From Mytilus edulis (lineage: Eukaryota), in contig NC_092347.1 in assembly GCF_963676685.1 (NCBI RefSeq), forward strand, positions 39,122,001 through 39,186,000: a stretch of DNA of 64,000 nt, in the 5' to 3' direction. Numbering within the stretch: the stretch's first letter is position 1; each line of letters opens with the position of its first letter. Of this stretch, positions 2,820 to 55,890 are shown piece by piece. The translations under genes and the position numbers were made by a program. Under the pieces are notes generated by a model that saw only the letters and a list, made by a program, of their open reading frames with translations, ran no database searches and had not been told where the DNA came from.

Positions 2820-3826
2820 CAAAACCAGGTTCAACCCACCATTTTTTTCTTTAAAAATGTCCTGTACCAAGTCAGGAAAATGGCCAATGTTATATCATAG
2901 TTCGTTTCTGTGTGTGTAACATTTTTATGTTGTGTTTCCGTTGTGTCGTTTGTTTTCTCTTATATTTGAGTGTGAATTCACATTACTATAAGACGTGTCA
3001 CGGTACTTTTCTATCCCAAATTCATGTTTTTGGTTTTGATGTTATATTTGTTATTCTCATCGGATTTTGTCTAATGCTTAGTCGGTTTCTGTGTGTGTTA
3101 CATTTTAATGTTGTGTCGTTGTTCTCCTCTTATATTTAATGCGTTTCCCTCAGTTTTTAACCGGATTTTTGTGACAAAAATGTCGGTTATTGATTTGGGG
3201 ATGTACGGCGGGCGGCAACCAAATGTTGTCCTTGCATTTACTCATGAACCGTTCAACCAAAGATTTTCAAATTTTAATATGTTGTTACAGACAACAAAAT
3301 AAAGGTCAAGTTCAATAATGACGATTTTGACTTTTACCGTTCAGGAGTTAAGGTTCTTGAAAGATTGAAAAATGGCATTTCCAGTCGTGTCCGTGCATTT
3401 ACGCATGAACTGTTCAACCAAAGCTTCCCAAATTTTAATATGTTGTTACTGATGGCAAAATAGAGGTCAAGTTCAATAATGACGATTTTGACTATTACCG
3501 TTCAGGAGTTATGGTTCTTGAAAGATTGAAAAATGGCTTTTCCAGTCGTGTCTGTGCATTTACTCATGAACCATTCAACATAAGCTTTTCAAATTTTAAT
3601 ATGTTGATACTGATGACAAAATGGAGGTCAAATTTGATATTGACCATTTTCACTTTCAATGTTCATCAGTTATGGTTCTTGTGATATTGGCAGGATACAA
3701 ATAAATGTTAATAAATCCGGTTTGCTGTCGTTGTGACAGCCTCTTGTAGTTTGTTACCCCGATTTAGTTTTTTGTCCATAGATTTACGAGTTTTGAACAG
3801 CGGTATACTACTGTTGCCTTTATTTA
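2820..3826 (+). mobile_element. Interspersed repeat with a 3' hairpin (aacagcggtatactactgtt), interrupted by a HINE
   Basis: An uninterrupted partial copy lies in reverse orientation at ~17488-17670; related fragments at ~6340-6405 and ~6520-6890. Confidence 0.65.
3158..3747 (+). mobile_element. Helentron-associated non-autonomous element (HINE/DINE-like), family A
   Basis: Subterminal inverted repeats aaccggattt / aaatccggtt, GGCG microsatellite, ~3 internal 161-bp tandem units, 3' hairpin gctgtc-gttgt-gacagc, inserted in a T-run. Second copy at 41899. Confidence 0.8.
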
Positions 3827-7599: not shown

Positions 7600-10500
7600 T
7601 GTCGGTTATTGACATTACACATACTGTAAATCATTGGCATTGCATTTTCTATCAATTATTGCCATTGCACTATGTTGTCAGTCTTTGCCATTGCACTATG
7701 ATGTTAGTCATTGTAATAACACTATTCTGTCAGCCTTTGTCATTGCTCAATGCTATTAGTCATTGTCATTGCACTATAATATCAGTCATTGTCATTGTCC
7801 TATTCTGTCAGTCATTGTCCTATGACGTCAGTCATTGTCATTGCACTATGATGTCAGTCATTGTCCTATTCTGTCAGTCATTGTCCTATGACGTCAGTCA
7901 TTGTCCTATGACGTCAGTCATTGTCCTATGACGTCAGTCATTGTCATTGCTCAATGCTATTAGTCATTGTCATTTCACTATGATGTCAGTCATTGTCATT
8001 TTCCTATTCTGTCAGTCATTGTCCTATGACGTCAGTCATTGTCATATGAAGTCAGTCATTGTCATTGCTCAATGCTATTAGTCATTGTCATTACACTATG
8101 CTGTCAGTCATTGTCTTTGCACTATGATGTCAGTCATTGTCATTACACTATTCTGTCAGTCATTGTCCTATGACGTCAGTCATTGTCATTGCACTATGAT
8201 GTCAGTCATTGTCTTTACACTATGATGTCAGTCATTGCACTATGAAATCAGTCATTGTCCTATGATGTCAGTCATTGTCCTATTACGTAAGCTATTGTCC
8301 TATGACGTCAGTCATTGTCATTGCACTATGCTATCAGTCATTGTCATTGCACTATGATATCAGTCATTGTCATTGCACTATGATGTCAGTCATAACACTA
8401 TTCTGTTAGTCATTGTCCTATGATGTCAGTCATTGTCCTATGATGTCAGTCATTGCACTATGATGTCAGTCATTGTCCTTACACTATTCTGTCAGACATT
8501 GCATTATTCTGTCAGATATTGCACTATTCTGTCAGACATTGCACTATTCTGTCAGACATTGAACTATTCATTCTGTCAGACATTGCACTATTCTGTCAGA
8601 CATTGCACTATTCTGTCAGACATTACACTATTCTGTCAGTCATTGCACTATGATGTCAGTCATTGAACTATGCTGTTAGTCATTGTCTTTACACTATTAT
8701 GTCAGTCATTGTAATTGCACTTTTTATTCAGTCATTGCACTATGCTGTCAGCCTTTGTCTTTTCACTATTATGTCAGTCATTGTCATTACAATATAATGT
8801 CAGTCATTGACATTGCTCCTTGCTATCAATCATTTTCATTGCACTATGATGTGAGTCTTTGTCTTTACACTATGCGGTCAGTCATTGTCATTACACTTTT
8901 CTGTCAGTGGTTGGCATTGCACTATGCTGTCAGTCATTATCATTACATTATTCTGTCAGTCATTGCACTATGATATCAGTCATTGTAATTGCTCCATGCT
9001 ATTAGTCAGTCATTATCATTGCACTATTCTGTCAGTCACTGCATTACAGTATACTGTCAGTTATTGCACTATGATGTCAGTCATTGTCATTGCACTATGC
9101 TGACAGCCTTTGTCATTGTTCCATGCTATTAGTCATTGGCATTGTCCTATGATGTCAGTCATTGACATTGCTCCATGATGTCAGTCATTGTCATTACATT
9201 ATTCTGTCAGTCATTGCACTATGCTGTCAGTCATTGTAATTGCACTATGCTATCAGTCATTATCATTGCACTATCCTGTCAGTCAATGTCATTACACTAT
9301 ACTGTCAGTTATTGCTCTATGCTGTCAGTCATTATCATTGCACTATGCTATCAGGCATTGTCCTTGTCTATGATGTCAGTCATTGACAGTGCTTCATGCT
9401 GTCAGTCATTGTCATTACACTAGTATGTCAGTCATTTTCATTGCACTATTATGTCAGTCTTTGTCATTTCACTATTCTGTCATACATTGTCCTATGACGT
9501 CAGTCATTGTCAGTCCACTTTGCTATCAGTCATTGCACTAAGATGTTAGTCATTGTCATTACATTATTTTGTCAGTCATTACACTTTGCTATCAGTCATT
9601 ATCATTGCACTATTCTGTCAGTCATTGTCATTACACTATACTGTCAGTTATTGCACTATGATGTAAGTCATTGTCATTGCATTATGCTGTCAGCCTTTGT
9701 CATTGCTCCACGCTATTATTCATTGTCCTTGTCCTATGATGTCAGTCATTGACATTGCTCCATGATGTCAGTCATTGTCATTGCCCTTTTGTGTCAGTCA
9801 TTGCACTATGATGTCAGTTATTGTCTTTGCACTATGCTGTCAGCCTTTGTCATTGCACTATGATGTCAGTCATTGTCAGTGCACTTTGCTATCAGTCATT
9901 GTCATTACATTATTCTGTCAGTCATTACACTTTGCTATCAGTCATTATGATTGCACTACTCTGTTAGTCATTGTCCTTACACTATACTGTCAGTTATTGC
10001 ACTATGATGTAAGTCATTGTCATTGCATTATGCTGTCAGCCTTTGTCATTGCTCCACGCTATTAATCATTGTCCTTGTCTTATGATGTCAGTGGTTGACA
10101 TTGCTCCATGATGTCAGTCATTGTCATTACATTATTCTGTCAGTCATTGCACTATGATATCAGTCATTGTCATTGCACTATGCTGTCAGTCATTATCATT
10201 GCACTATTCTGTCAGTCACTGCATTACACTATACTGTCAGTTATTGCACTATGATGTCAGTCATTGTCATTGCATTATGCTGTCAGCCTTTGTCATTGCT
10301 CCACGCTATTAATCATTGTCCTTGTCTTATGATGTCAGTCATTGACATTGCTCCATGATTTCAGTCATTGTCATTGCACTTTTTTGTCAGTCATTGCACT
10401 ATGATGTCAGTCATTGTCATTGCACTATGATGTCAGTCTTTGTCATTGCACTATGCGGTCAGTCATTGTCATAACACTTTTCTGTCAGTGGTTGGCATTG

Positions 10501-11400
10501 CACTATGCTGTAAGTCATTGTCATTACATTATTCTGTCAGTCATTGCACTATGATATCAGTCATTGTCATTGCACTATGCTGTCAGTCATTGTAATTGCA
10601 CTATGCTATCAGTCATTATCATTGCACTATGCTATCAGTCATTATCATTGCACTATTCTGTCAGTCATTGTCATTATACTATACTGTCAGTTATTGCACT
10701 ACGATGTCAGTCATTGTCATTGCACTTTGATGTCAGTCATTGTCATTGCTCCATGCTATTAGTCATTGTCCTTATCCTATGATGCCAGTCATTGACATTG
10801 CTCCATGATGTCAGTCATTTTCATTGCACTTTTTTGTCAGTCATTGCACTATTATATCAATCTTTGTCATTACACTATTCTGTCAGTCATTGTCATATGA
10901 CTTCAGTCATTGTCATTACATTATTCTGTCAGTCATTACTGTTTGCTATCAGTCATTTGCATTGGACTATTCTGTCATTCATTGTCATTACACTATACTT
11001 TCAGTTATTGCACTATGATGTCAGTCATTGTCCTTGCTCCATGCTATTAGTCATTGTCCTTGTCATATGATGCCAGTCATTGACATTGATCCATGCTGTC
11101 AGTCATTGTCATTGCACTATGCTGTCAGTCATGTTGTCATTGCACTATGCTGTCAGTCATGTTGTCATTGTACTATGCTGTCAGCTTTTGTCATTGCTCC
11201 ATGCTATTTGTCATTGTCCTTGTCCTATAATGTCAGTAATCGACATTGCTCCATGCTTTCAGTCATTGTAATTGCACTATGACGTCAGTCATTGTTATTG
11301 CACTATTATGTCAGTCATTGTCATTGCACTATTATGTCAGTCATTGTAATTGCACAAAACATTCAGCCATGCACTATGTGATAAGTCATTTTTCCAATAA
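7600..11400. repeat. Cryptic minisatellite with 20/26-bp variant units (gtcagtcattg[tcattg]cactatgat)
   Basis: Directly visible over ~3.8 kb, with higher-order blocks (e.g. ~9520-9780 repeated at ~9880-10130). Confidence 0.95.
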
Positions 11401-15012: not shown

Positions 15013-16097
15013 TTTTTGTCGAGTCTGCAACTTTTGTTGCAGAAAGCTCGACATAGGGATAGTGATCTGGCGGCGGCGTTTGCTCACTTCTTAAAAGCTT
15101 CATATTTTAGAAGGGGGAAGACCTGGATGCTTCATACTTTGTATATAGATGCTTCATGTTACGAAGTTTCCGTCAGTCACATGTCCAATGTCCTTGACCT
15201 CATTTTCATGGTTCAGTGACCACTTGAAAAAAAAGTTCAAATTTTTTGTAATGTTGAATTCTCTCTTATTATAAGTAATAGGATAACTATATTTGATATG
15301 TGCGTACCTTGCAAGGTCCTCGTGTCTGTCAGACAGTTTTCACTTGACCTCGACCTCATTTCATGGATCAGTGAACAAGGTTAAGTTTTGGTGGTCAAGT
15401 CCATATCTCAGATACTATAAGCAATAGGGCTAGTATATTCGGTGTATGGAAGGACTGTAAGGTGTACATGTCCAACTGGCAGGTGTCATCTGACCTTGAC
15501 CTCATTTTCATGGTTCAGTGGTTATAGTTAAATTTTTGTGTTTTGGTCTGTTTTTCTCATACTTTATGCAATAGGTCTACTATATTTGTTGTATGGAATG
15601 ATTGTAAAGTGTACATGTCTAGCGGGCAGATGTCATGTGACCTTGACCTCATTTTCATGGTTCAGTGGTCAAAGTTAAGTTTTTGAGTTTTGGTCTTTTT
15701 ATCTAATACTATATGCCATAGGTCAATTATATTTGGTGTATAGAAATATTTTATGATCTTTATGTCAGTCGCGCAGGTTTTATTTGACCGCGACCTCATT
15801 TTCACGGTTCATTGCACAGTGTTAAGTTTTCGTGTTTTGGTCTATTTTTCTTAAACTATAAGTAATGGGTCAACTATATATGTTGTATAGAAGCATTGTT
15901 AGCTGTACATGTCTGCCTGGCATGGTTCATCTGACCTTGACCTCATTTTCAAGGTTCATTGGTCTCTGTTAAGTTATCTTGATTAATGTTAAGTTTATGT
16001 GACAGTTTTAATAAAGCTTAGCTTTATACTTAGGACTATCAACATAATATCAATGATTAGTATAGAAGGCGAGACATTTCAGCGTGTGCACTCTTGT
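15013..16097 (+). mobile_element. HINE/DINE-like element family B with 147-bp internal tandem units
   Basis: 5' hairpin tgtcgag...ctcgaca, GGC microsatellite, 147-bp period of tgaccttgacctcattttcatggttca, 3' end gtgtgcactcttgt. Near-identical copy at 36047. Confidence 0.8.
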
Positions 16098-27699: not shown

Positions 27700-30094
27700 T
27701 ATATATGGTGAAACAATTCCAGTTTTTACTTTAGAAAATATGGAAGCGAAAATACAGAGAGACACGGTGAACCACAAACAAATAGGAACACACTCTAAAA
27801 AAAAAGACAAAAAGACAAACAACCTAGTTGTTAATTTCTGTGTTATTTTGGTCTCTTGTGGAGAGTTGTCTTATTGGCAATCATACCACATCGTTTTTTT
27901 ATATATAAGCTCTGTGCTGAATCTTCAGTGGCAAATATTTGTTTATTTTAAGGACTACTATTTTGAATTAGAAATTGTCTGATGCAATTATCTTTTCACA
28001 AGTTGAATGATATTATGAGATAAATGCATAAATAGATTCTTAGTTTAATCAGATTCTAACACTAACGCAGTATAAATTCAATTTAAATAATACTGAAACA
28101 TGCAGACACATATAAATTTTATTATTACAAAAAAAAAATAAAAATGAGTTGTTGAGCTGGATGTGGTTTGATATTAAATTGCATAAAACTTTAAACAAAA
28201 AAAAAAATGTAAAGATTTTCAGCAAAAAAGCCAGACTAATTAAGAATTCTAAAAGTGGTAAGACTATATATTGAATTTGATTTCAAGGAATTTTTAAAGT
28301 ACAAAAAAAGTAAATTTTATTTACTTATAATAGCTATACAAATATTCCATGTACTGTAAGTGCTTAATATTCTAGCTACGATCCTATATTGCAATAGTTT
28401 GTCATTAAATTGAAATCAGTACTATTACTAAGGCCGTGAGATTACTTGTATTAAGTAGATTGATGTCCATAGGCCTTGTCTGAAAAGGATAAAGAACAGT
28501 AAAGTTGTCGCTTACATAACAAAATATCTGTAAATAAATGTTGGAGTAGGTACATAACCTTAAATTGTCAGAATAAAATATACCAATACTCCATAGATAA
28601 ATTGTTTGATTGGAAACTTATTGTGAAACCTTATAGGGATATAAATTTTGGTTAATTTTTATAAAGAAAATATATCGAAATGAGTGTTTTGTATTAGTAT
28701 CAGGGTAGTTAAAAGTTGCAGTCCATTAGAAATCTTGCACTTTATATTAACTGACTTTTCACTTCCATTTAGGTAATAGGTTTGAGTGAGATTTTGTGGA
28801 TTAATGTGGTAAATTAGAGGAAATATGGTATACTTTGTGTAAAGAGGGGGAAATAGAATAAAAGCTCCTAATCAAATTAAGAATTGTGCAAATGCTTATA
28901 TTATGTAACCATGGTAAAACACTTAGACTGTAAGAATTTGTACAGTATAAAATAAAATGACTGTTTTTATAGTACCATTATATTTGCTTAATAATTGTAT
29001 GCTTAATGTCTAGTGGAAAAGGCTTCATTAAAAGCAAGGTTAGGAACATGTTTTATTCAACATTAAATCCAAAAGTAGATTTTGCACATGCCCCTTAAAT
29101 AGCATTGATAAATGAAATTCACTGGCTAAGTTTAACTTGTGTTATGCTTGTCCCCTTTAAAATCTTCTTTTTAACTCCCCATAAGAGTCCCCTTTTTCAA
29201 CACCTATGTACACTCATAAATTACTTTTATTCAAAGAAAATAAATGCATCCACATAAAAAATCTTGAACTATTATCGGTTACTTTAAATTGGTATTGCAG
29301 AATATGCCTCCCGGGGGCTAATTTTCCATTAATTTGATCCAAAGTGGTAACTAATTAGATTTTATTTCAATTAACTAAAGGTTCTCTGTACTATTGGTGT
29401 ACAATAGTGTGGATATGATTCTATACTGGAATAGTTTACTTGTCATTGATTAATGCTTAGAACAGTTAAACTAAGACCTTTTTTTTATTTTGCCCCTAGC
29501 TGTCATTACAAAAGGGGCATGAAGTTTTACCCTTGTCCTTCTGTACATCCATATGTCTGTCTGTACATCCCGAAATTGGTTTCTGTTTTCTAACTTTAGT
29601 TAGCCTCAACTAAATGTTATGAACCAATACATTTCGTTTGTCCACAAAACACAGATCAAGTAAGAATTTGGATGGTATCACTTCTACCTTTTTATAGTTA
29701 ATTGCCCCAATATAGATTGTTGAATTTTTTTCATTTCCTTTCTCTGACTTAAGTTTATCTCAACACAATGTTATGAACACAATGCTTAATACCACAAAAC
29801 ACAGTTCAGGTTTGAATTTGGGTGGCCCAACTTTTACTGTTCTAGTGCCCCTTTTCATTTCTAAATCTTATACAAATAACAGTATTAAAAAAGCATTGCA
29901 ATTTCCAGGCATTCATGAATGATGAGTATTTAAAAAAACAACTTGCAGTGAACTTAAGATACCAAGCCTTCATTTAACAAAGAAGTTGTTTTTTTCTATT
30001 TCAACAGCCGACAAAACCCATATTTGTATTATGATTGTAGGTCTAGTCTGGTTAGAATAAGTACATAAAATGTGGGTTTATACCTTTAACTGTC

Positions 30095-30420
30095 AGAAAC
30101 GTAGAAGTCTCCTTGAACACTGACGAGTCTAATATACCATACCAATAAAACAGTAGATGACTTCTAAAGAACACAAACAAGTCTCATATACCATACCACA
30201 AGAAACAATAGATGTCTCCTAATAAATGCTACCAATTCTTATATACCATCCACATAGAAATGTAAATGTCTTCTAACGGACATTAATAAGTCTCATGTAC
30301 CATACCACATAAAACAATTAGAAGTCTCAACCCAAAACCTAACCAGTCTCATATACCATACCACGAGAACAGTTGATGTGTCCTTAAGACCATAACTAGT
30401 CTCATGCATCATACCACATT
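30095..30420. repeat. Diverged tandem array, ~54-bp period, ~6 copies
   Basis: Core agtctcatataccataccac recurs at 30126, 30180, 30235, 30289, 30345 and 30398. Confidence 0.85.
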
Positions 30421-30790
30421 TATCTATACTACTATAGATACTTAGAGTAGAAAAGGAAATGTTTAACTAGGATGGAACATTATCCTGCCGTACTGGATAC
30501 TTGATATCATATGCAACTTTATAATAACTATTCTAATTTTATTAACAAACTAATATACTAAGACACCATAGTATACACAGTATACGAATATCATATTCAC
30601 AATCATTTCTAAATCTATTATACTGAATACATATGAAAATAATAATAAATGTATCATTTGGCTTTCTAGGGGGCTACTCGTTAAAACTTACAATAAAACA
30701 AATAAAAATAACCATATGAAAAACACTACCTACTCAAAACAATTTTAAATTAATTGAAAAGTAAATTGTCTAAATTATGCAATTTTAAGA

Positions 30791-31302
30791 ACCTGCAGTA
30801 GAGCCCTGACAGGTGAAAAATTAAATTTAGAAACCTGAGTGGTAAAGCCCAGACAGGTATAAATTTGAAAAATGAGAATACCTGCGGTAGATCCCAACAG
30901 GTACTTTTAGAACCTGAGTGGTAGAGCCCAGACAAGTATGAATTTTGAAAACTGAGAATTCCTGCGGTAGATCCCAGCAGGTACTTTTAGAACCTGAGTG
31001 GTAGAGCCCAGACAAGTATGAATTTTGAAAACTGAGAATTCCTGCGGTAGATCCCAACAGGTACTTTTAGAACCTGAGTGGTAGAGCCCAGACAAGTATG
31101 AATTTTGAAAACTGAGAATTCCTGCGGTAGATCCCAACAGGTACTTTTAGAACCTGAGTGGTAGAGCCCAGACAAGTATGAATTTTGAAAACTGAGAATT
31201 CCTGCGGTAGATCCCAACAGGTACTATTAGAACCTGACTGGTAGAGCCCAGACAAGTATAAATTTGAAAAATGAGAATTCCTGCGGTAGATTCCAACAGG
31301 TA
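30791..31302. repeat. 80-bp tandem array (~6 units), each a dimer of a quasi-palindromic motif
   Basis: Unit tttagaacctgagtggtagagcccagacaagtatgaattttgaaaactgagaattcctgcggtagatcccaacaggtact; central units are nearly identical. Confidence 0.95.
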
Positions 31303-31478
31303 CAAAAAATAACTTAATTATCACCCTTAAATAAAACAAAGCCTAAATAAATTATAAAATGTATTAATGAATTGGGGGAAAATAATTTCCCTGAAATTAA
31401 GTAGGCCAAATTGAAACGAGTAGCATGAGTGAAAGCCCCCAAGAAATGATACATATACATATTTATAAAGTTGAATAA

Positions 31479-31523
<45 letters not shown>

Positions 31524-31750
31524 ATAATAATAATACAAAATTTTCAATATACCATTAAAAAGAATAAGTATTTGAATAGAATTTCATATATGAAAATGAA
31601 AACGCATAAAATAAAAAACCAGAACACACTATTAATTCAAAACGCATAAAATAAAAAACCAGAACACACTATTAATTCAAAATACTAAAAAGATTTAACA
31701 AAATGAAGTTCTTATAACTCCTTGATATAGTACAAAACATGTATAAAAAT

Positions 31751-32368
31751 TTAAGAACAACACATCTGCTTAGTGCTTCCAAACAGTTTTTTTGGGTCAT
31801 TTCTAATGTACCGTATATAACAATCGGATGACCATCTACCTAAAGTCTGAATAATATGGTCCTCAACCCCTGCTGCTGCAGCTGATGTAGCAGCACCAAT
31901 TCGAAAAGAATGACCACAAAATTTATTATCATTATACCCTAATCTGAACAGGGACTCTCGAAGCAGAGCTATAAATGTATCTCTATACAAAGGAGCGTTA
32001 TTATACTCAACTTTAACAAATAAATAAGAATCTGGTCTAGCTCCATAATTTTTTCTACTTGTATATATCTCCTCATCAAATCAAAAATATCATTTTCAAA
32101 AATAGTAATGTTAATACCTTCTCGAAATGGGTCACATTTGGAGGAATTCAGATGTACTGTGAAATTTTGAAAATTGTGTCAAAATCAATATCTGAATTAA
32201 TAGTGTGTTCTGCCTGGCAATTTTACTACTATACGTAAATTCACCACATCGGAGAAATCCAAAAAAAGCTAGATTAAAAGAGCGCTATAACATTAAGTCG
32301 ACGAATGGAGAAAAACTCCTAGCTGTAAAATACAGCACAATTATTTCAAAATTTGAGATGTAATAGGT
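31751..32368 (-). pseudogene. Tyrosine recombinase relic of a DIRS/Ngaro-type retrotransposon
   Basis: Manual translation: PITSQILK*...SPFVDLML*RSFNLAFFGFLRCGEFT...HLNSSKCDPFREGINITIFEN...FCGHSFRIGAATSAAAAGVEDHIIQTLGRWSSDCYIRYIR. The R, K, HxxR, W and Y catalytic motifs are present but interrupted by stops and frameshifts. Confidence 0.9.
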
Positions 32369-33649
32369 CCCGCTGAAAAAACGCCTCAGGGTGCGGGAGT
32401 TTCTCGTTGCATTGAAAACCCATTGGTAGCTTTCAGCTGTTGTCTGCTCCGGTTGTACTTATACATAAGGATGCCTAGAAACCTGTGGTAGAACCCACAG
32501 GTGAAACAACAATAGCCTGTGGTAGAACCCAAATAGGTAAAAATACTTGAATACTGTAGTAAAACCCTGACAAGTGAGACATATAATAACGTGTGGTAAG
32601 ACTAAGATAGGTGAGAAAAAAAAAAAAAAACAAAAAACAAAAAAAACAAAAAAAACAATAACATTTTGTAGACCAAGAAGGTAAAAATTCTGAGACTGCA
32701 TATGAAAACGTGCAGGTCTGCAAGCCTTGCTACATGTACGTGCAATGTACATAATGTGATACGATGTTACTGGATTGATTGATAGATTGCTTGTTGCTTA
32801 AGGTCCCAATGTTCACTGGATTGATTGATTGATTGTTGGTTGCTTAACGTTCCAATGTTCACTAATATTGGAAATATATGAATGTTGAATCCTGCACAGC
32901 TGCATCTGCCAGATACCATAAGTTGAGTTCACTTCAAAGGACTGACAAGTTATCTAGCACTTCTAAGCGGATTTATAGTTACAATTTCACCTACTATCTT
33001 GAGAACCATAAACAGCATACCAGCTGGGACTATTATACTATAAAAGTCCCAGGTTCCTGCTGAAATATAAAACTTAAAGCAGTATCATGTCTTAAACATT
33101 TGGTTCAACCTTAACAGGTTAAAACTATATGTGAACCTGTGATAAATCCATACAGGTAAAATCTGAAAATGTGGTATAACCCTGACAGTTGAAAACATGC
33201 AAAATCCAGAACCCAGACAGTTAAAATCTTGAAACCTATGGAAGAACCCTGAAAGGTGAGCAAAAAAAAAAAAAAAAAAAACATTCATGTGTAAAACACC
33301 TGTGGTTGATCAAAGACAAGGTTTTAGATGAGAATTCCTCAGGTAGATTTGAACAAATACTTGGGCTAGACGGTCAGGCACTCAAACCTGCAAGTTTGAT
33401 TGATTGATTGTTAGTTGCTTACCGTTCAGTGCCTGTGGCCATCCTGCATGAAAACCTGATATTAAACCATCAATTCAACTATTTAAAATTCATAGTACGG
33501 ATGGTCATTCAAATTCTGATACTAGTAACGTTTTAAAATGGAAACTGAAAATCAAAACTGTCTTGGGGAACTAAAGTGTCTTCAAGTTGCCAGATTCGAT
33601 ACTCTGGGGCTCATATGGTTCTCGGTTTTTTGGTAAGTATATACATATA

Positions 33650-34290
33650 TGATTTTCCGATTTCCCCTTTACAAACCCAACAAATATTATGACTATTGCA
33701 GCATCTCATAGCTGCGCATCCTCTGATACCTGAAAAAATACGAATTTCCCAACCTAGACGATTAGTTTATCTTACACTTGTGCTTATATGACTGTTGCAA
33801 GTTACCAAGCCAGGAGTGGAAAATGTGTTACCACACAGGTTTGGAAGAGTATTATCGAAAAATTGATACAAAAGAGAGTTATGTTTCTAACAGACCACTC
33901 TGCACTATATTGTAAAGAGGCATATGAGCTGTACGTAAACAGTAGTAATATCCGCAGAATCCTATACCTAGGTAATAAGTGGTCATACAATGTATCTACG
34001 TGATCCCTCTTATAGAAATAACATTATTTCTCCATCGGGGTATTACTATATATAAATATAAGATATATAATAAACTAAAAACGTGAATAGACACCACTAT
34101 AATAACTGATGAAAACCTAGTTAGCCTAGGGATGAATTTGTAATGTAAAGCCTCCATTGAAATTTCATTATGTCATACCCGGCATAATAAGGATTGAGTA
34201 TAAGGAGTTCGTACCTGATGTGAATTGTTTTCCTCAGTTTGGGAGAAAGGCAGTCATTCAGCTGCATCACCTTGTATTCCGTCACACCAC
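33650..34290 (-). pseudogene. Highly decayed gag-like ORF1 relic of a DIRS/Ngaro-type element
   Basis: Fragments SPKLRKTI, LNPYY, EWSVRNITLFC and a Cys/His cluster (GIRGCAAMRCCNSHNICWVCKGE) occur in the order I recall for invertebrate Ngaro/DIRS ORF1. Same strand as, and upstream of, the YR relic. Confidence 0.55.
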
Positions 34291-36046
34291 ACACTTCCTG
34301 GTTTTTCTACTAGCTGCAGTCTCTGTAATTGAATTCCTAGTAAAGGCTGCATATCCTGATCCTTCATATGTATGTATAATAGTAGGGATAAATTGACATT
34401 GTCACAGCGTAACTTCTGGTTGAAGTGAAAGTAGAAAAATCAGCTGCTTAATGTCCTGTCAAGTATTCTATTCTCCTAAGATTTTGATGATACTAACTCC
34501 AGTCAGTGATGAAACATAACATTTCCACTGAAGCATGGTTGAATAAAGTATGGAGGCCGAGTTTCTGTCCATTTAAATTGAAGTGGAATTCAAAAGCATG
34601 TGGTCCTCTTGTGTACTAACTGATGCATGTGGGATCGCACACTACCATATAAGGTGTAGCTTGAATTTTATCTGCTAATAACGGAATATGTCCTTCATTT
34701 CGATTATATTATCATTATGATAATAAAGTCTGAAAAGCAATATTCTGAATAGCACCTTTTCCTTGCATTTAAAGGTACTATCATTCCATAGATTGTTCCG
34801 TAACTGAATAAGTCTTAAACATGTCAATTTTATTTATTTTTTGGTTCACCTTGCAATTTCACGGTAAATCCCAACCTATTACCGTCCCATACATGTACTG
34901 CATGCGAGGTCCAATATAGTTAATGAGAAGCAAACACATTAACTAACAACTAACAAAGTTGATAATGAAATTAATAATTAACAGCATCTTTAGAAGCAGG
35001 TACAAATATCAATATCCATGTTACAAACATCACTTCAATACAAAGAAGTTTCTAAAAGTCCCATTAAAACGTGTTAAGTCCAGTTTTGATTTGCATCAAA
35101 AAAATATTATAGCTATTTTCAAGAAAAATGGAAAGTAATTTTTTTCCTGAATAAATTATCCACAAATAAAAATATGACTGCTAACAGTGCAATGCTCAAA
35201 CAACAACTGACCATCCTATCAAAATGATATACAGATGTTTCTCTGATTACACCCATGCTGTCATCAAGCTGTTTCCTATCTATGATCTAATACCTATCCC
35301 TTAATCTCTTAATTAAAACAAAACTGCCAAGCTGACAAGCTAACAAGTTGACCTTATCATTATGAAAACAAACCAGGGGAAGTTTAACCCAAGGAATTTA
35401 TCAAAATATGTATAAACTATAATTTAATTTTTAAATTACCAATTACATAACACAAGAAATCCATAAAGGAATGCCATTATAGTTGTATATGTCCAAATAA
35501 GTGGAATTAATGCTCTTTTAATAAATTGTTTGACAAATTGGTTATAAAACCTGATTATAATATAAAATCATTAATTATAAGAAAAGAATAGATTGTCATT
35601 AGCTGTCTTGTTTGAGTACAGTATCAAGGTTATGTCTGTAGTTGGCTATCTTAAATCTGCACTTTATACTTATGGTAAAGTTCAACAAAGAGAGAATATG
35701 TTACTTATAGAATATAGGGTATATAAAAAATGAAAACATGTTTATAAGTTGCATGAGCCCAGTATATATCAAAGTACGTCAGGAACTATACATGGATGCA
35801 TTGTCTATGTAACATCATGGTATCTATGTGTTAATATCATTGTCATTCCAACTTGAAATCATTCATTTATACAGACATCTTTTTCCACTTTATATTTAAC
35901 ACAGCCTTTTTTACCCTACACAATCACAAAAACCATTATAATTCTGGGGAAGGGAAATAGAGGGCGTATGAACACTTTGATTGGAAAATATATATGGTTT
36001 TTACCATTAAATCATCCTAAAATTGTTCACTTTGTATGCTTTGAGG

Positions 36047-37168
36047 TTTTTTGTCGAGCCTGCAACTTTTGTTGCAGAAAGCTCGACATAGGGATAGTGA
36101 TGCGGCGGCGGCTATGGCGGCTACGGCGACGGCGGAGGTGGCATAAGCTCACTTCTTAAAAGCTTGATATTTTAGAAGGTGAAAGACCTGGATGCTTCAT
36201 ACTTTGTATATAGATGCTTCAGGTTACGAAGTTTCCGTCAGTCACATGTCCAATGTCCTTGACCTCATTTTCATGGTTCAGTGACCACTTGAAAAAAAAA
36301 GTTCAAATTTTTTGTAATGTTGAATTCTCTCTTATTATAAGTAATAGGATAACTATATTTGGTATGTGCATACCTTGCAAGGTCCTCGTGTCTGTCAGAC
36401 AGTTTTCACTTGACCTCGACCTCATTTCATGGATCAGTGAACAAGGTTAAGTTTTGGTGGTCAAGTCCATATCTCAGATACTATAAGCAATAGGGCTAGT
36501 ATATTGGGTGTATGGAAGGACTGTAAGATGTACATGTCCCACTGGCAGGTGTCATCTGACCTTGACCTCATTTTCATGGTTCAGTGGTTATAGTTAAATT
36601 TTTGTGTTTTGGTCTGTTTTTCTCATACTATATGCAATAGGTCTACTATATTTGTTGTATGGAATGATTGTAAAGTGTACATGTCTAACGGGCAGATGTC
36701 ATGTGACCTTGACCTCATTTTCATGGTTCAGTGGTCAAAGTTAAGTTTTTGAGTTTTGGTCTTTTTATCTAATACTATATGCCATAGGTCAACTATATTT
36801 GGTGTTTGGAAATATTTGATGATCTTTATGTCAGTCACACAGGTTTTATTTGACCGTGACCTCATTTTCACGGTTCATTGCACAGTGTTGTGTTAAGTTT
36901 TCGTGTTTTGGTCTATTTTTCTTAAACTATAAGTAATGTGTCAACTATATATGTTGTATAGAAGCATTGTTAGCTGTACATGTCTGCCTTGCATGGTTCA
37001 TCTGACCTTGACCTCATTTTCAAGGTTCATTGGTCTCTGTTAAGTTATCTTGATTAATGTTAAGTTTATGTGACAGTTGTAATAAAGCTTAGCTTTATAC
37101 TTAGGACTATCAACATAATATCAATGATTAGTATAGAAGGCGAGACATTTCAGCGTGTGCACTCTTGT
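36047..37168 (+). mobile_element. HINE/DINE-like element family B, second full copy
   Basis: Near-identical to 15013-16097, with a longer GGC microsatellite. Confidence 0.8.
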
Positions 37169-38374: not shown

Positions 38375-38812
38375 CTTTACAGAAAGATAGAATATGGATT
38401 TAAGTGGGACCCAAAAATCCCTCTCAAGATGAGTTTCAAAATGCAGAAATACTAAAAAAAATGGTCTTGTATGTTTTTTTTTAAATGAGTCTGAGGCACC
38501 TCAATTGATACCAAGGTCCAGATCTTATTAGAACTAATAGTATGGGAAATCTGCAAAGTCAAATGGCAGCCTATAGTTGCTAATACATCCACATCATTTG
38601 GTCTATGGTGGATTGTTGTCTCTTTGGCAATCATAAAACATCTTGATTTTATAGTCTTCAATTCTTAATATTTCACTAATCATTTATTTCCAATTAATTA
38701 CTTTCCTAAGATTTATGAATTATATATGTTTATGCTAAATATAGTAAAAGTTTTGTTTCAATATGATTTTTTTTCCTTTATCATTGATCAGAGTTTTTTT
38801 TTTAAATTTCAG

Positions 38813-39085
38813 AACAAACAAGATAACAGTGAATTTGAGTTTACCATGACTTCAGAAGGCTACCAGTGCCAAGAAATGTCAGTTATAGCTGACCAGATCT
38901 GGACAGATATCAGACATGCAGAAACATGGCTATTGAATCTAAAGTCATGTATTCCAAAGATGAAGACTGTTCCTGTTAACATAACCAATATGGTGGCATC
39001 ACTGTTCCTGCTTTCCAAGACTGAAGTGCTATCAGACCTAGGAATACAAACCCTGGTTGAAATTGCTAAGCAGGATGTTAGTCAG
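38813..39085 (+). CDS. FOCAD: Focadhesin-like exon F (NKQDNSEF...HAETWLLNLKSCIP...LVEIAKQDVSQ)
   Basis: tttcag acceptor, gtagag donor; 273 nt, phase 0/0. Resembles focadhesin AASDWLASVESLLP...TELAQADSSQ. Confidence 0.9.
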
Positions 39086-41187
39086 GTAGAGACAGGTTTT
39101 TGTGGGTTTTTTGGGTAAAGATTGCCTGAAATGCAATCCAAAGCCTATGTTACTGACTTGATATCTAAATCTTCCAAGGCTAATCACAACCTTTTTGATA
39201 CACAATATATAGGGCACTGATCATAACATTCTATATATCATATCCATGAACATTACCAGAAATTTATCAATGTAATATATATGCTCTGATATTCAAGGCA
39301 CAAACGGATGTTTCTACTTTCAAGAAAATAACATAACTTTTAAAAGGTGCAGGAATCTGTTCTAAAAATATAAATGATGTCATTATTAAAGTCATCTTTA
39401 AAAATTTGAGTTATCTCCCATTGTTCAGAATTGTAATTGAATCAACTACAACCAATGCTTTATTGACAATGCAATATTTTGATTTTACTTCCCACTGATA
39501 AGGTAAAGCAATCTTTACCGTTCTGTGATTACAAGCACTTTGATTTTGTAACTCTTAACTGGTAATCAAAAATAGAATAAAATAAGAATTTAGATTCCAC
39601 GCCTCTTTCTTTGGATCTGTTCTGACATTAAACCATGATTTAAGCATGGTTGTGTCGTTAGTGCACCTGAGTTGATACATAGGGTTCACTATCTGCTCTT
39701 TGTCTTCATCAGGATTGATTTTCTTATAAGTTTAATAGTGGACTCAACTCTATTTCACTAAGTAACAGTTAAGTCCTGCAATAACTTGTCTAATGTAACA
39801 TAGATATGAGTTTTATTCATGAATTCTGGTTATAACATTCAATTTGATGTATCAGTTCTTTAAGAAATATTTTTACGTTGTCCAAATAATGCATGTGAGA
39901 CTACAATTCTAGATTATAGATACCTCACCGCAGGACTTATAGAAAAATTTCTGATGGAGAAGGTCTTTTAAACAATATAGTGTCATGCAAAAATATGAAA
40001 GTTAAAGTTTTTCATGTTGATTTCACAATGAGTACATAGATCCTTTAATTGGTCATTTTCATGAGCCACGCTTATTTTGGCATATTTTTAAACGCAGTTA
40101 TGTATGTACCTGTTAAATAATTGAATTTAAGTGGTATCTGTGTCTGTAAACCTTGTCCAATAACTGGAACACATCATTTAGCTTTAAATCTTTTTAAATT
40201 GGCTATTTTACAGACTAAATCTAATAAAGTTTAAAATTCATCAATTTCATTCAAATAAGCCCTTTCTGTTTCATGGAAATGTACAGAATGTCTATTGATG
40301 GTTATGCTACCATCCTTAATTTAAAACCATTTTAGATAATCATGTTTAGAAACCTTAGTTGATTATGAGAGAAGCGTCTTAGGTTCTTAAATATGATTAA
40401 AAGATTAAAAAGTATTGTTCTTTTGTTGTTTGTCTTTGACGGCATCTAGATCTTGATGAAATATACTATATTAAGTTTATAATAAAAAGAAAATAATTAA
40501 ACATTTATACTCAGCAATTCTATAAATAGTTTTGTTATTGAAAAAAGGAAATATGATTTTTCTTTAGGAGTTTTTCATTTCTGAAATTTTTTTCACACAG
40601 GAGTTTGGCCTCAAATGAACTTATAATTTAACTATTTATGGCTTCAAAATCTTATTATTTTCAGCACAAGTTCACTTTAATTAATTATTTTAATGCTGTG
40701 AAAAGTTGTTTAAATGTTAATTCTTATTATTGCAGCTGCAAAGTTATTAAACTTTCACTTTAATTGCTGTAACCTTCAATTAAAGGACTATATATTTTAT
40801 AAAACGGAACTGCAATAATACCAAATGCAGAATAAATTAATAAACAATCGTTTACACTAAAAGCATTCAGAATTTCAGATAGCAATTTTCTTGGTTTTAG
40901 AAAAAAATAAATGAATTCTTATCCCAGCAAGAGTTCATGATGAAACAAACGAATATGCTGGTGGATATGTGTAAAGGGCCTTATATTTGGCCATGAAAAT
41001 AAAGTTAGAATTGAAATATACAAAATTTTGTGAATTTTGCTTCACATACTGATGAAACTAGATACTCAAAATTTTTACTCATTTAAAAAAAAAGTTTGAG
41101 TTAATTTCCCTGTTGCTTTCTTCATTCACAGTTTTTATGTGTTTTTGATTAACATATTATGTTGGTTAATTTTTATTATATTTTCAG

Positions 41188-41898: not shown

Positions 41899-42539
41899 TT
41901 TTTTTAAACAGGATTTTTGTGACAAAAATGTCAGGTTATTGATTTGGGGATGTACGGCGGGTGGTCGGGCGGTCGGGCGGCCAGGCGGTCGGTCGGGTGG
42001 GCGGCAACCAAATGTTGTCTGTGCATTTACTCATGAACCGTTCATCCAAAGCTTTTTAAATTTTAATATGTTGTTACTGACAACAAAATGAAGGTCAAGT
42101 TCAAGAATGACGATTTTGACTTTTACCGTTCAGGAGTTATGGTTCTTGAAAGATTAAAAAATGGTGTTTCCAGTCGTGTCCGTGCATTTACTCATGAACT
42201 GTTCAACCAAAGCTTTTCAAATGTTGATATGTTGTTACTAATGACAAAATGGAGGTCAAGTTTAATAATGTCGATTTTGACTTTTACCGTTCAGGAGTTA
42301 TGGTTCTTGAAAGATAAAAAAATGGCGTTTCCATTCATGTTGTTGCATTTACTCATGAACCATTCAACCTAAGCTTTTTCAAATTTTAATATGTTGATAC
42401 TGATGACAAAATGGAGGTCAAATCTGATATTGACGATTTTCACTTTCACCGTTCATCAGTTATGATTCTTGTGATATTGCCAGGACACAAATAAATGTTA
42501 ATAAATCCGGTTTGCTGTCGTTGTGACAGCCTCTTGTTT
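41899..42539 (+). mobile_element. HINE family A, second copy
   Basis: Collinear with 3158-3747; expanded GGCG/GGTC microsatellite; T-rich flanks. Confidence 0.8.
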
Positions 42540-55105: not shown

Positions 55106-55890
55106 TTTTTATGCCCCACCTACGATAGTAGAGGGGCATTATGTTTTCTGGTCTGTGGCTCCGTTCGTCCGTCCGTCCGTCCGTTCAGGTTAAAGTTTTT
55201 GGTCAAGGTAGTTTTCGATGAAGCTGAAGCCCAATCAACTTGAAACTTAGTACACTTGTTGCTTATGATACGATCTTTTTAATTTTATGCCAAATTAGAC
55301 TTTTGACCCCAATTTCACGGTCCACTGAACATAGAAAATGAAAGTGGAAGTTTCAGGTTAAAGTTTTTGGTCAAGGTAGTTTTTGATGAAGCTGAAGTCC
55401 AATCAACTTGAAACTTAGTACACTTGTTGCTTATGATATGATCTTTCTAATTTTATGCCAAATTAGACTTTTGACCCCAATTTCACGGTCCACTGAACAT
55501 AGAAAATGAAAGTGGGAGTTTCAGGTTAAAGTTTTTGGTCAAGGTAGTTTTTGATGAAGCTAAAGTCCAATCAACTTAAAACTTAGTAAACTTGTTGCTT
55601 ATGATATGATCTTTTTAATTTTAAAGCCAAATTAGACTTTTGACCCCAATTTCACAGTCCACTAAACATGGAAAATGAAAGTGGGAGTTTCAGGTTAAAG
55701 TTTTTGGTCAAGGTAGTTTTTGATAAAATTGAAGTCCAATCAACTTGAAACTTAGTACATATGTTCCCTATAGTATAATCTTTCTAATTTTAATGCCAAA
55801 TTAGATTATTACCCAATTTCACGGTCCATGGAACATGGTAAAGGATAGTGCGAGTGGGGCATCCGTGTACTTTGGACACTGATTCTTGTT
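55106..55890 (+). mobile_element. HINE/DINE-like element family C with four ~168-bp tandem units
   Basis: Subterminal IR atgccccac / gtggggcat, (gtcc)n microsatellite, units starting at 55184, 55352, 55520 and 55689, 3' hairpin, T-run flanks. Confidence 0.85.

Follow-up and report, generated by a model that had tools for sequence, protein, structure and literature searches.

A hairpin array in the B repeat of Ngaro-type retrotransposons of Mytilus edulis, a candidate RNA signal within a wider predicted structure

We analysed 64,000 nucleotides of the Mytilus edulis genome (NC_092347.1, positions 39,122,001 to 39,186,000; hereafter the window), in which a tandem array lies beside a relic of a tyrosine recombinase (YR) gene. 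Predicted pairing places the array, as a variable insert, within a wider structure formed by two boxes designated X and Y, which related families of retrotransposons keep with different letters. The type of element is already known; the hairpin array and the pairing among X, Y and a third box, X', appear to be new within the scope of our literature search.

Results

A Ngaro-type retrotransposon copy in the window

Judged by its repeats and gene remnants, the relic is one non-autonomous copy of a Ngaro-type retrotransposon with the structure A1-internal-B1, located on the minus strand from 35441 to 30077. The YR relic had been recognised in an earlier sequence-only reading of the window, and its match to PF00589 on the minus strand (E 6.5e-6) agrees with this. 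From its 5' end, the copy consists of A1, remnants of gag and RT, the upstream array, the truncated YR, X and B1, with the following features.

35148-35441, minus strand: A1 split direct repeat, element 5' end, contributing the right half to the hairpin of the B|A junction; 88% to A of the intact L099; homology stops at 35441
33441-34655, minus strand: gag remnants and RT start; patches of 77-82% to L099 gag and RT, and 68-82% to L033
33110-33350, minus strand: upstream array cluster 2, the decayed remains of an older subfamily's B-array starting at the first unit; four matrix matches, folding z -0.2
32481-32615, minus strand: upstream array cluster 1, a decayed B-array, directly before the YR relic; three matrix matches, folding z -2.0
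31751-32368, minus strand: tyrosine recombinase relic that lacks its 5' part and is interrupted by stops and frameshifts; PF00589, 92% to L099 YR
31426-31454, minus strand: box X, a unique sequence immediately preceding B1; its predicted partner is Y or, alternatively, CCCCCAA inside B
30077-31415, minus strand: B1 split direct repeat, 3' end of the window copy; the sister L100 has B1-A2-B2
31372-31410, minus strand: conserved B start, with UUUGGCC landmark, hairpin and CCCCCAA
30791-31303, minus strand: 3' hairpin array, in which two types of unit (13 in all) make up a period of 80 bp; X and Y flank this variable insert
30649-30683, minus strand: box Y, with GCCAAA at its end; predicted to pair with X (in B1) and with X', the box in the spacer (in B2)
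30538-30543, minus strand: AATAAA, candidate poly(A) signal 3' of Y by sequence
30077-30084, minus strand: B end GGTATAAA, left half of the junction and putative YR crossover site; the 27 non-junction B ends all terminate at this point, with AA following

Intact relatives have the order A1-gag-RT/RH-YR-B1-A2-B2, in which B1 equals B2. In the intact L033/L099, A1 is followed by a 474-codon ORF, RT/RH (576), YR (373) and then B1-A2-B2, with B1 and B2 equal over 1196 bp. The window copy has neither A2 nor B2, and its 97% sister L031/L100 has B1-A2-B2 and thus all four repeats; recombination between B1 and B2 or resolution at the junction would fit this loss equally. The relic DNA had 36 matches in the 1.37-Gb genome. 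YR matches numbered at least 132, and many YR families have intact ORFs and identical repeats, indicating that they were recently active.

The assignment to Ngaro rests on the structural definition given in the portions of the literature available to us (PMC9210276, PMC4157794, PMC3783388), namely gene content and repeat layout, and both appear to agree here. RT/RNase H and YR ORFs lie on one strand, with PF00078 and PF00589 detected in three families (the window copy keeps remnants), and the RT ORF of 561-577 codons runs into YR. The repeats after YR are internal, and the whole forms the split direct order A1-ORFs-B1-A2-B2. The Dam-like methyltransferase PF05869 had no match at E 0.05 in nine ORFs of three families, and this absence sets the element apart from DIRS1 and PAT. 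A DIRS1-like element was rejected because the repeats are direct, and the inverted terminal repeats and ICR of that type were not found.

Several minor features accompany the element. The 3' part of B contains 54/109-bp direct repeats near the TATA-like junction (30115-30419), which are part of the element and possibly promoter-like, and a short piece of another repeat, also present in the sister copy, separates the YR relic from the upstream array (32369-32456). L070 (4938-8399) and L100 (6205-10000) are copies with extra A-spacer-B units (B-A-B-A-B). A C-rich tract directly after A2 is kept across families and organisms (L099 6550-6580, L044 8667-8690, L118 3450-3480). In a distant YR family without X and Y boxes, an apparent remnant of an SGNH-type ORF was seen by eye after YR (L095 4850-5480).

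The 3' array lies within repeat B

The motif was searched with a weight matrix trained only on the other loci L058, L044 and L101. It detected 13 copies in the 3' array (30791-31303), and seven upstream copies, at 32481, 32515, 32552, 33135, 33167, 33234 and 33298 (span 32481-33322), in accordance with the sequence-only reading. A further copy proposed near 32590 was recognisable by eye but fell below the matrix threshold. All 20 matches were on one strand, as had been claimed; the controls gave one match on the opposite strand and 0-2 in eight shuffled windows. With a fixed 15-mer and three mismatches allowed, 14 matches were obtained versus 0.78 expected (0/100 shuffles). The 80-bp repeat was also recovered (six copies, 96%), and its period corresponds to two alternating hairpin unit types. 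Of the inverted arms reported around a core, the arms were found as described, and the core was corrected to 12-16 nt from arm to arm, variable in length.

In relatives, the array sits inside the B repeat, in both B1 and B2. An exact 22-mer from it had 119 genome matches (100 of them listed), compared with 0 for the reversed control. Among 26 further stretches that we mapped, 25 contained the array and B sequence adjoined it in all 25; nine of these were solo A-spacer-B units without YR. Every array-bearing locus mapped thus lies in B, which supports the view that the array belongs intrinsically to this YR lineage as a module; occurrence apart from the element, as for an ordinary minisatellite, was seen in none of the 25. 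A peptide-coding repeat was also rejected, because reading frames across the array are short or absent.

The number of units ranged from 5 to 17 among 33 B copies. It was equal in B1 and B2 in five of six elements, the exception being L232 (17 vs 9), suggesting that B is likely copied once per cycle.

Predicted folding and conservation of the unit hairpin

The sense strand of each unit is predicted to form a stem of 4-5 bp, a bulge or small loop, a GG/CC pairing and a six-base loop NNUCNN. The hairpin with this loop is carried by four families that form one clade (support 100/98) and whose YR proteins are 58-65% identical to that of L033; as independent families with the motif number only about four, they represent few independent events. 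The outer stem pair swaps between families (C-G, G-C, U-A or U-G), family 3 has a different perfect stem, and the array linkers are unrelated between families. The folding z of the arrays (-4.4 to -8.3) speaks for an RNA signal. Between subfamilies, the 3' end of the array is 92-97% identical, and the 3' part of B there 83-93%. L114, an independent lineage, has a sense-specific hairpin array at the same place (z -7.9 vs -0.6).

Other folding results argue against a signal in sense RNA. The window array folds alike on both strands (z -4.7 / -4.8), also when the boxes are included (z -5.3 / -5.9), the L069 array folds better antisense, and family 2 has a C-A mismatch in the sense-strand hairpin. 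Repeats at the array position fold weakly in L093, L116, L121 and L077, which also speaks against it. The sequence-only reading had held that linkers as conserved as the motif would point to an ordinary minisatellite. Inside the young array, 16/32 linker positions and 17/36 stem positions are variable, which also counts against an RNA signal, and between families it is the linkers that differ.

We compared the array with known RNA structures. No match at the gathering score was obtained with Rfam in L033, L044 and L048. A ribozyme was rejected on the lack of an Rfam match and on HDV-like and twister layouts that misfit by eye. An ENE was likewise rejected, because 18 local folds contained no consistent ENE-like loop (an internal loop rich in U on both strands), and our literature search found no paper linking ENE with DIRS.

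The array is enclosed by predicted X/Y and X'/Y pairing

Most families share one layout: X before B1, a UUUGG landmark at the B start, a hairpin, CCCCAA, the variable insert, Y and often AATAAA, which lies within 130 nt of Y in 14/18 families. X' is a separate box in the spacer between A2 and B2 and is also predicted to pair with Y. The metagenome loci L116, L118 and L121, from other organisms, have the same layout with other repeats in the insert. In the intact young clade L085, L087 and L089, the X and Y boxes are present and the array is absent, which argues against the array itself being a signal; intact elements without arrays, named in the sequence-only reading as evidence against its proposal, thus exist in this one clade.

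The pairing of X with the Y of its own family was stronger than the non-own mean in 17/18 families and the best of the row in nine; for X' and Y, the corresponding numbers were 14/14 and five. The families in both comparisons include some from other organisms. None of 100000 permutations reached either result, and these are not clean probabilities, as Y was chosen as the best partner of X and the families are related. The X:Y comparison covered the 18 of 31 loci with a clear Y (13 were omitted as weak, cut or unclear), and the X of L121 was re-picked by hand. G-U pairs in the enclosing helix numbered 26 on the sense and 8 on the antisense strand, and the helix was more stable on the sense strand in 14/19.

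In the predicted fold of the window region, the units form hairpins inside an X/Y clamp. X can pair locally with CCCCAA instead of Y, suggesting that the structure may adopt two states. Pairing of CCAA with the UUGG at the B start was not accepted as established and is treated here as hypothetical, because B2 often has no such UUGG and CCAA can pair elsewhere.

Possible functions of the array

Among the options of the sequence-only reading, the RNA hairpin was the better one. The folds and pairing described above give about an even chance that the array and its enclosing helix are a sense-RNA signal for packaging or priming, acting as a multi-copy site for the element's own Gag or RT. In full-length RNA, X would fold locally at B1 and expose the UUUGG landmark at the B boundary. 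X' would clamp Y in B2 and loop the array out near the RNA 3' end, and the looped-out domain could recruit Gag/RT and set the start or the template switch of reverse transcription. The array would be an optional, lineage-specific amplification of the RNA signal, probably expanded by RT slippage.

The enclosing X/Y/X' structure could also be functional with the array as a tolerated by-product, RT pausing and slipping at the hairpin and multiplying it in a loop indifferent to its content. This is possible but somewhat unlikely. The range of unit numbers, linkers as variable as stems, the array-free intact clade and the unrelated repeats that occupy this position elsewhere among the clades are all consistent with it. 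However, the hairpin and its loop are kept across families whose linkers share nothing, the array is better conserved than the 3' part of B, and the sense-specific array of L114 arose in an independent lineage.

A more specific form of the RNA signal, which we consider unlikely and put forward tentatively, is that Ngaro primes reverse transcription without tRNA via a two-state RNA switch in B. X' would clamp Y in B2, the CCA-containing end of Y or the RNA tail would dock on UUUGG at the B boundary, and the array, looped out, would present many copies of a family-specific landing pad by which the Gag/RT of each family chooses its own RNA.

The units might instead be DNA sites, double-stranded or in folded single-stranded cDNA, for a host factor or for accessory binding of the element's recombinase. 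Strand-symmetric folding in the window family and the antisense preference of L069 fit such sites, and DIRS-1 is described, in the part of the source available, as making single-stranded antisense cDNA (PMC7192593). Against them stand the core of 12-16 nt, stem pairs that swap instead of keeping their letters and the excess of G-U pairs on the sense strand of the enclosing helix, and we regard such sites as improbable.

Transcripts were sampled from about 6% of each of three raw RNA runs, which gave 16, 86 and 29 reads on the intact copy; among these few reads, neither shared ends nor joints nor poly(A) tails were found. RNA depth over B in the window was below 15, and most reads came from pieces of an unrelated high-copy repeat.

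Element ends at the B|A junction, the putative crossover site

All mapped intact element ends coincide with the B|A junction, and the distance to the array is 700 bp. Of the ends, 19 family-1 5' ends finish in T with GG next to it, and 27 3' ends have GGTATA as their last letters, followed by AA. The search was anchored on these end motifs and truncated ends were uncounted; a separate mapping shows homology stopping at the same place. The junction folds into its own hairpin in 15/16 families.

Core sites of tyrosine recombinases of the loxP/dif type have a fixed spacer of 6-8 bp between inverted arms. Crossover at the units, the main option of the sequence-only reading and suggested by inverted arms around an asymmetric core, is largely refuted and retains hardly any probability, because the ends map outside the motif, the junction has its own hairpin and the core varies in length; the motif does not mark the place of crossover.

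The upstream array

Both upstream clusters align best to the B-array of the older subfamily L058, linkers included. The alignment score of cluster 2 was 157 to the L058 array vs 105 to the 3' array of the window copy, and that of cluster 1 was 125 vs 82 (shuffles about 30-34). Contrary to what had been stated, the upstream linkers are therefore not unique. Both clusters fold poorly. In sister subfamilies, cluster 1 abuts the YR start, and the upstream array replaces most of RT/RH in L100, L101, L102, L104, L225, L232, L236 and the window copy. A 16-mer of the upstream array had 16 exact matches, 12 beside YR matches and the other four in element-derived loci.

These alignments indicate that the upstream array is a captured, decaying relic of a B-array from an older subfamily, probably without function. 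The old and young array states that had been proposed thus correspond to the decayed upstream array and the 3' array, respectively. Two tandemly integrated elements, also suggested earlier, were rejected because a single non-autonomous family carries the upstream array internally as a fixed component.

A short inverted repeat between the two clusters (33007-33056) is kept in sister copies. The captured segment also contains truncated heads of an unrelated high-copy repeat (32764-32863 and 33390-33431), which draw thousands of RNA reads.

Relation to known elements

In the available parts of their descriptions, elements of the Ngaro superfamily, order DIRS (PMC9210276, PMC8547959, PMC4157794, PMC3783388), resemble the present ones in having a gag-like ORF, RT/RH and YR, no methyltransferase, the order A1-ORFs-B1-A2-B2 and solo AB units; unlike here, these parts mention neither a hairpin array in B nor pairing of X or X' to Y. 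The excerpts seen on SIRE of the trypanosome element VIPER (PMC6681497) describe an A2-B2 region found alone, like nine loci here, but no array or pairing. Solo A-B units are also reported for Cafeteria Ngaro. B is 1.2-1.5 kb here, compared with a reported 152 bp in DIRS-53_XT. TOC1 of Chlamydomonas reportedly carries an internal 76-bp tandem array, to go by the title of a 1991 paper by Day and Rochaix. TOC1 is a split-repeat element, and its array is akin to the period of about 80 bp here, although described in that title as internal. It belongs to the PAT group, according to the passage seen (PMC4157794).

Our literature search, which covered sources other than the founding papers and Repbase, found neither a hairpin array nor X/Y/X' pairing described for Ngaro. 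The psi signals of retroviruses and the epsilon signals of hepadnaviruses are bulged stem-loops with hexaloops near an RNA end that serve packaging or priming. Their likeness to the array is an analogy only, as there is no sequence likeness and no Rfam match.

For elements of the order DIRS, the section of the source available (PMC7192593) describes the primer of reverse transcription as unknown, treats priming and the choice of RNA as open questions and mentions a 3' hairpin primer proposed for DIRS-1. A helix with family-specific letters, a choice of two 5' partners and an exchangeable hairpin insert, at the boundary of a once-copied repeat, would offer exact mutations to try. The putative RNA signal is also separated from the site of the recombinase, which is put at the B|A junction.

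Other repeats and reading frames in the window

Elsewhere, the window contains a 3.7-kb minisatellite with a period of 20/26 (7658-11355). Short arrays of 147-168-bp units, likely within common dispersed repeats, lie at 3227-3681, 15345-15975, 36411-37034, 42016-42471 and 55184-55855. A 149-codon open frame on the plus strand (38669-39118) possibly includes a host exon.
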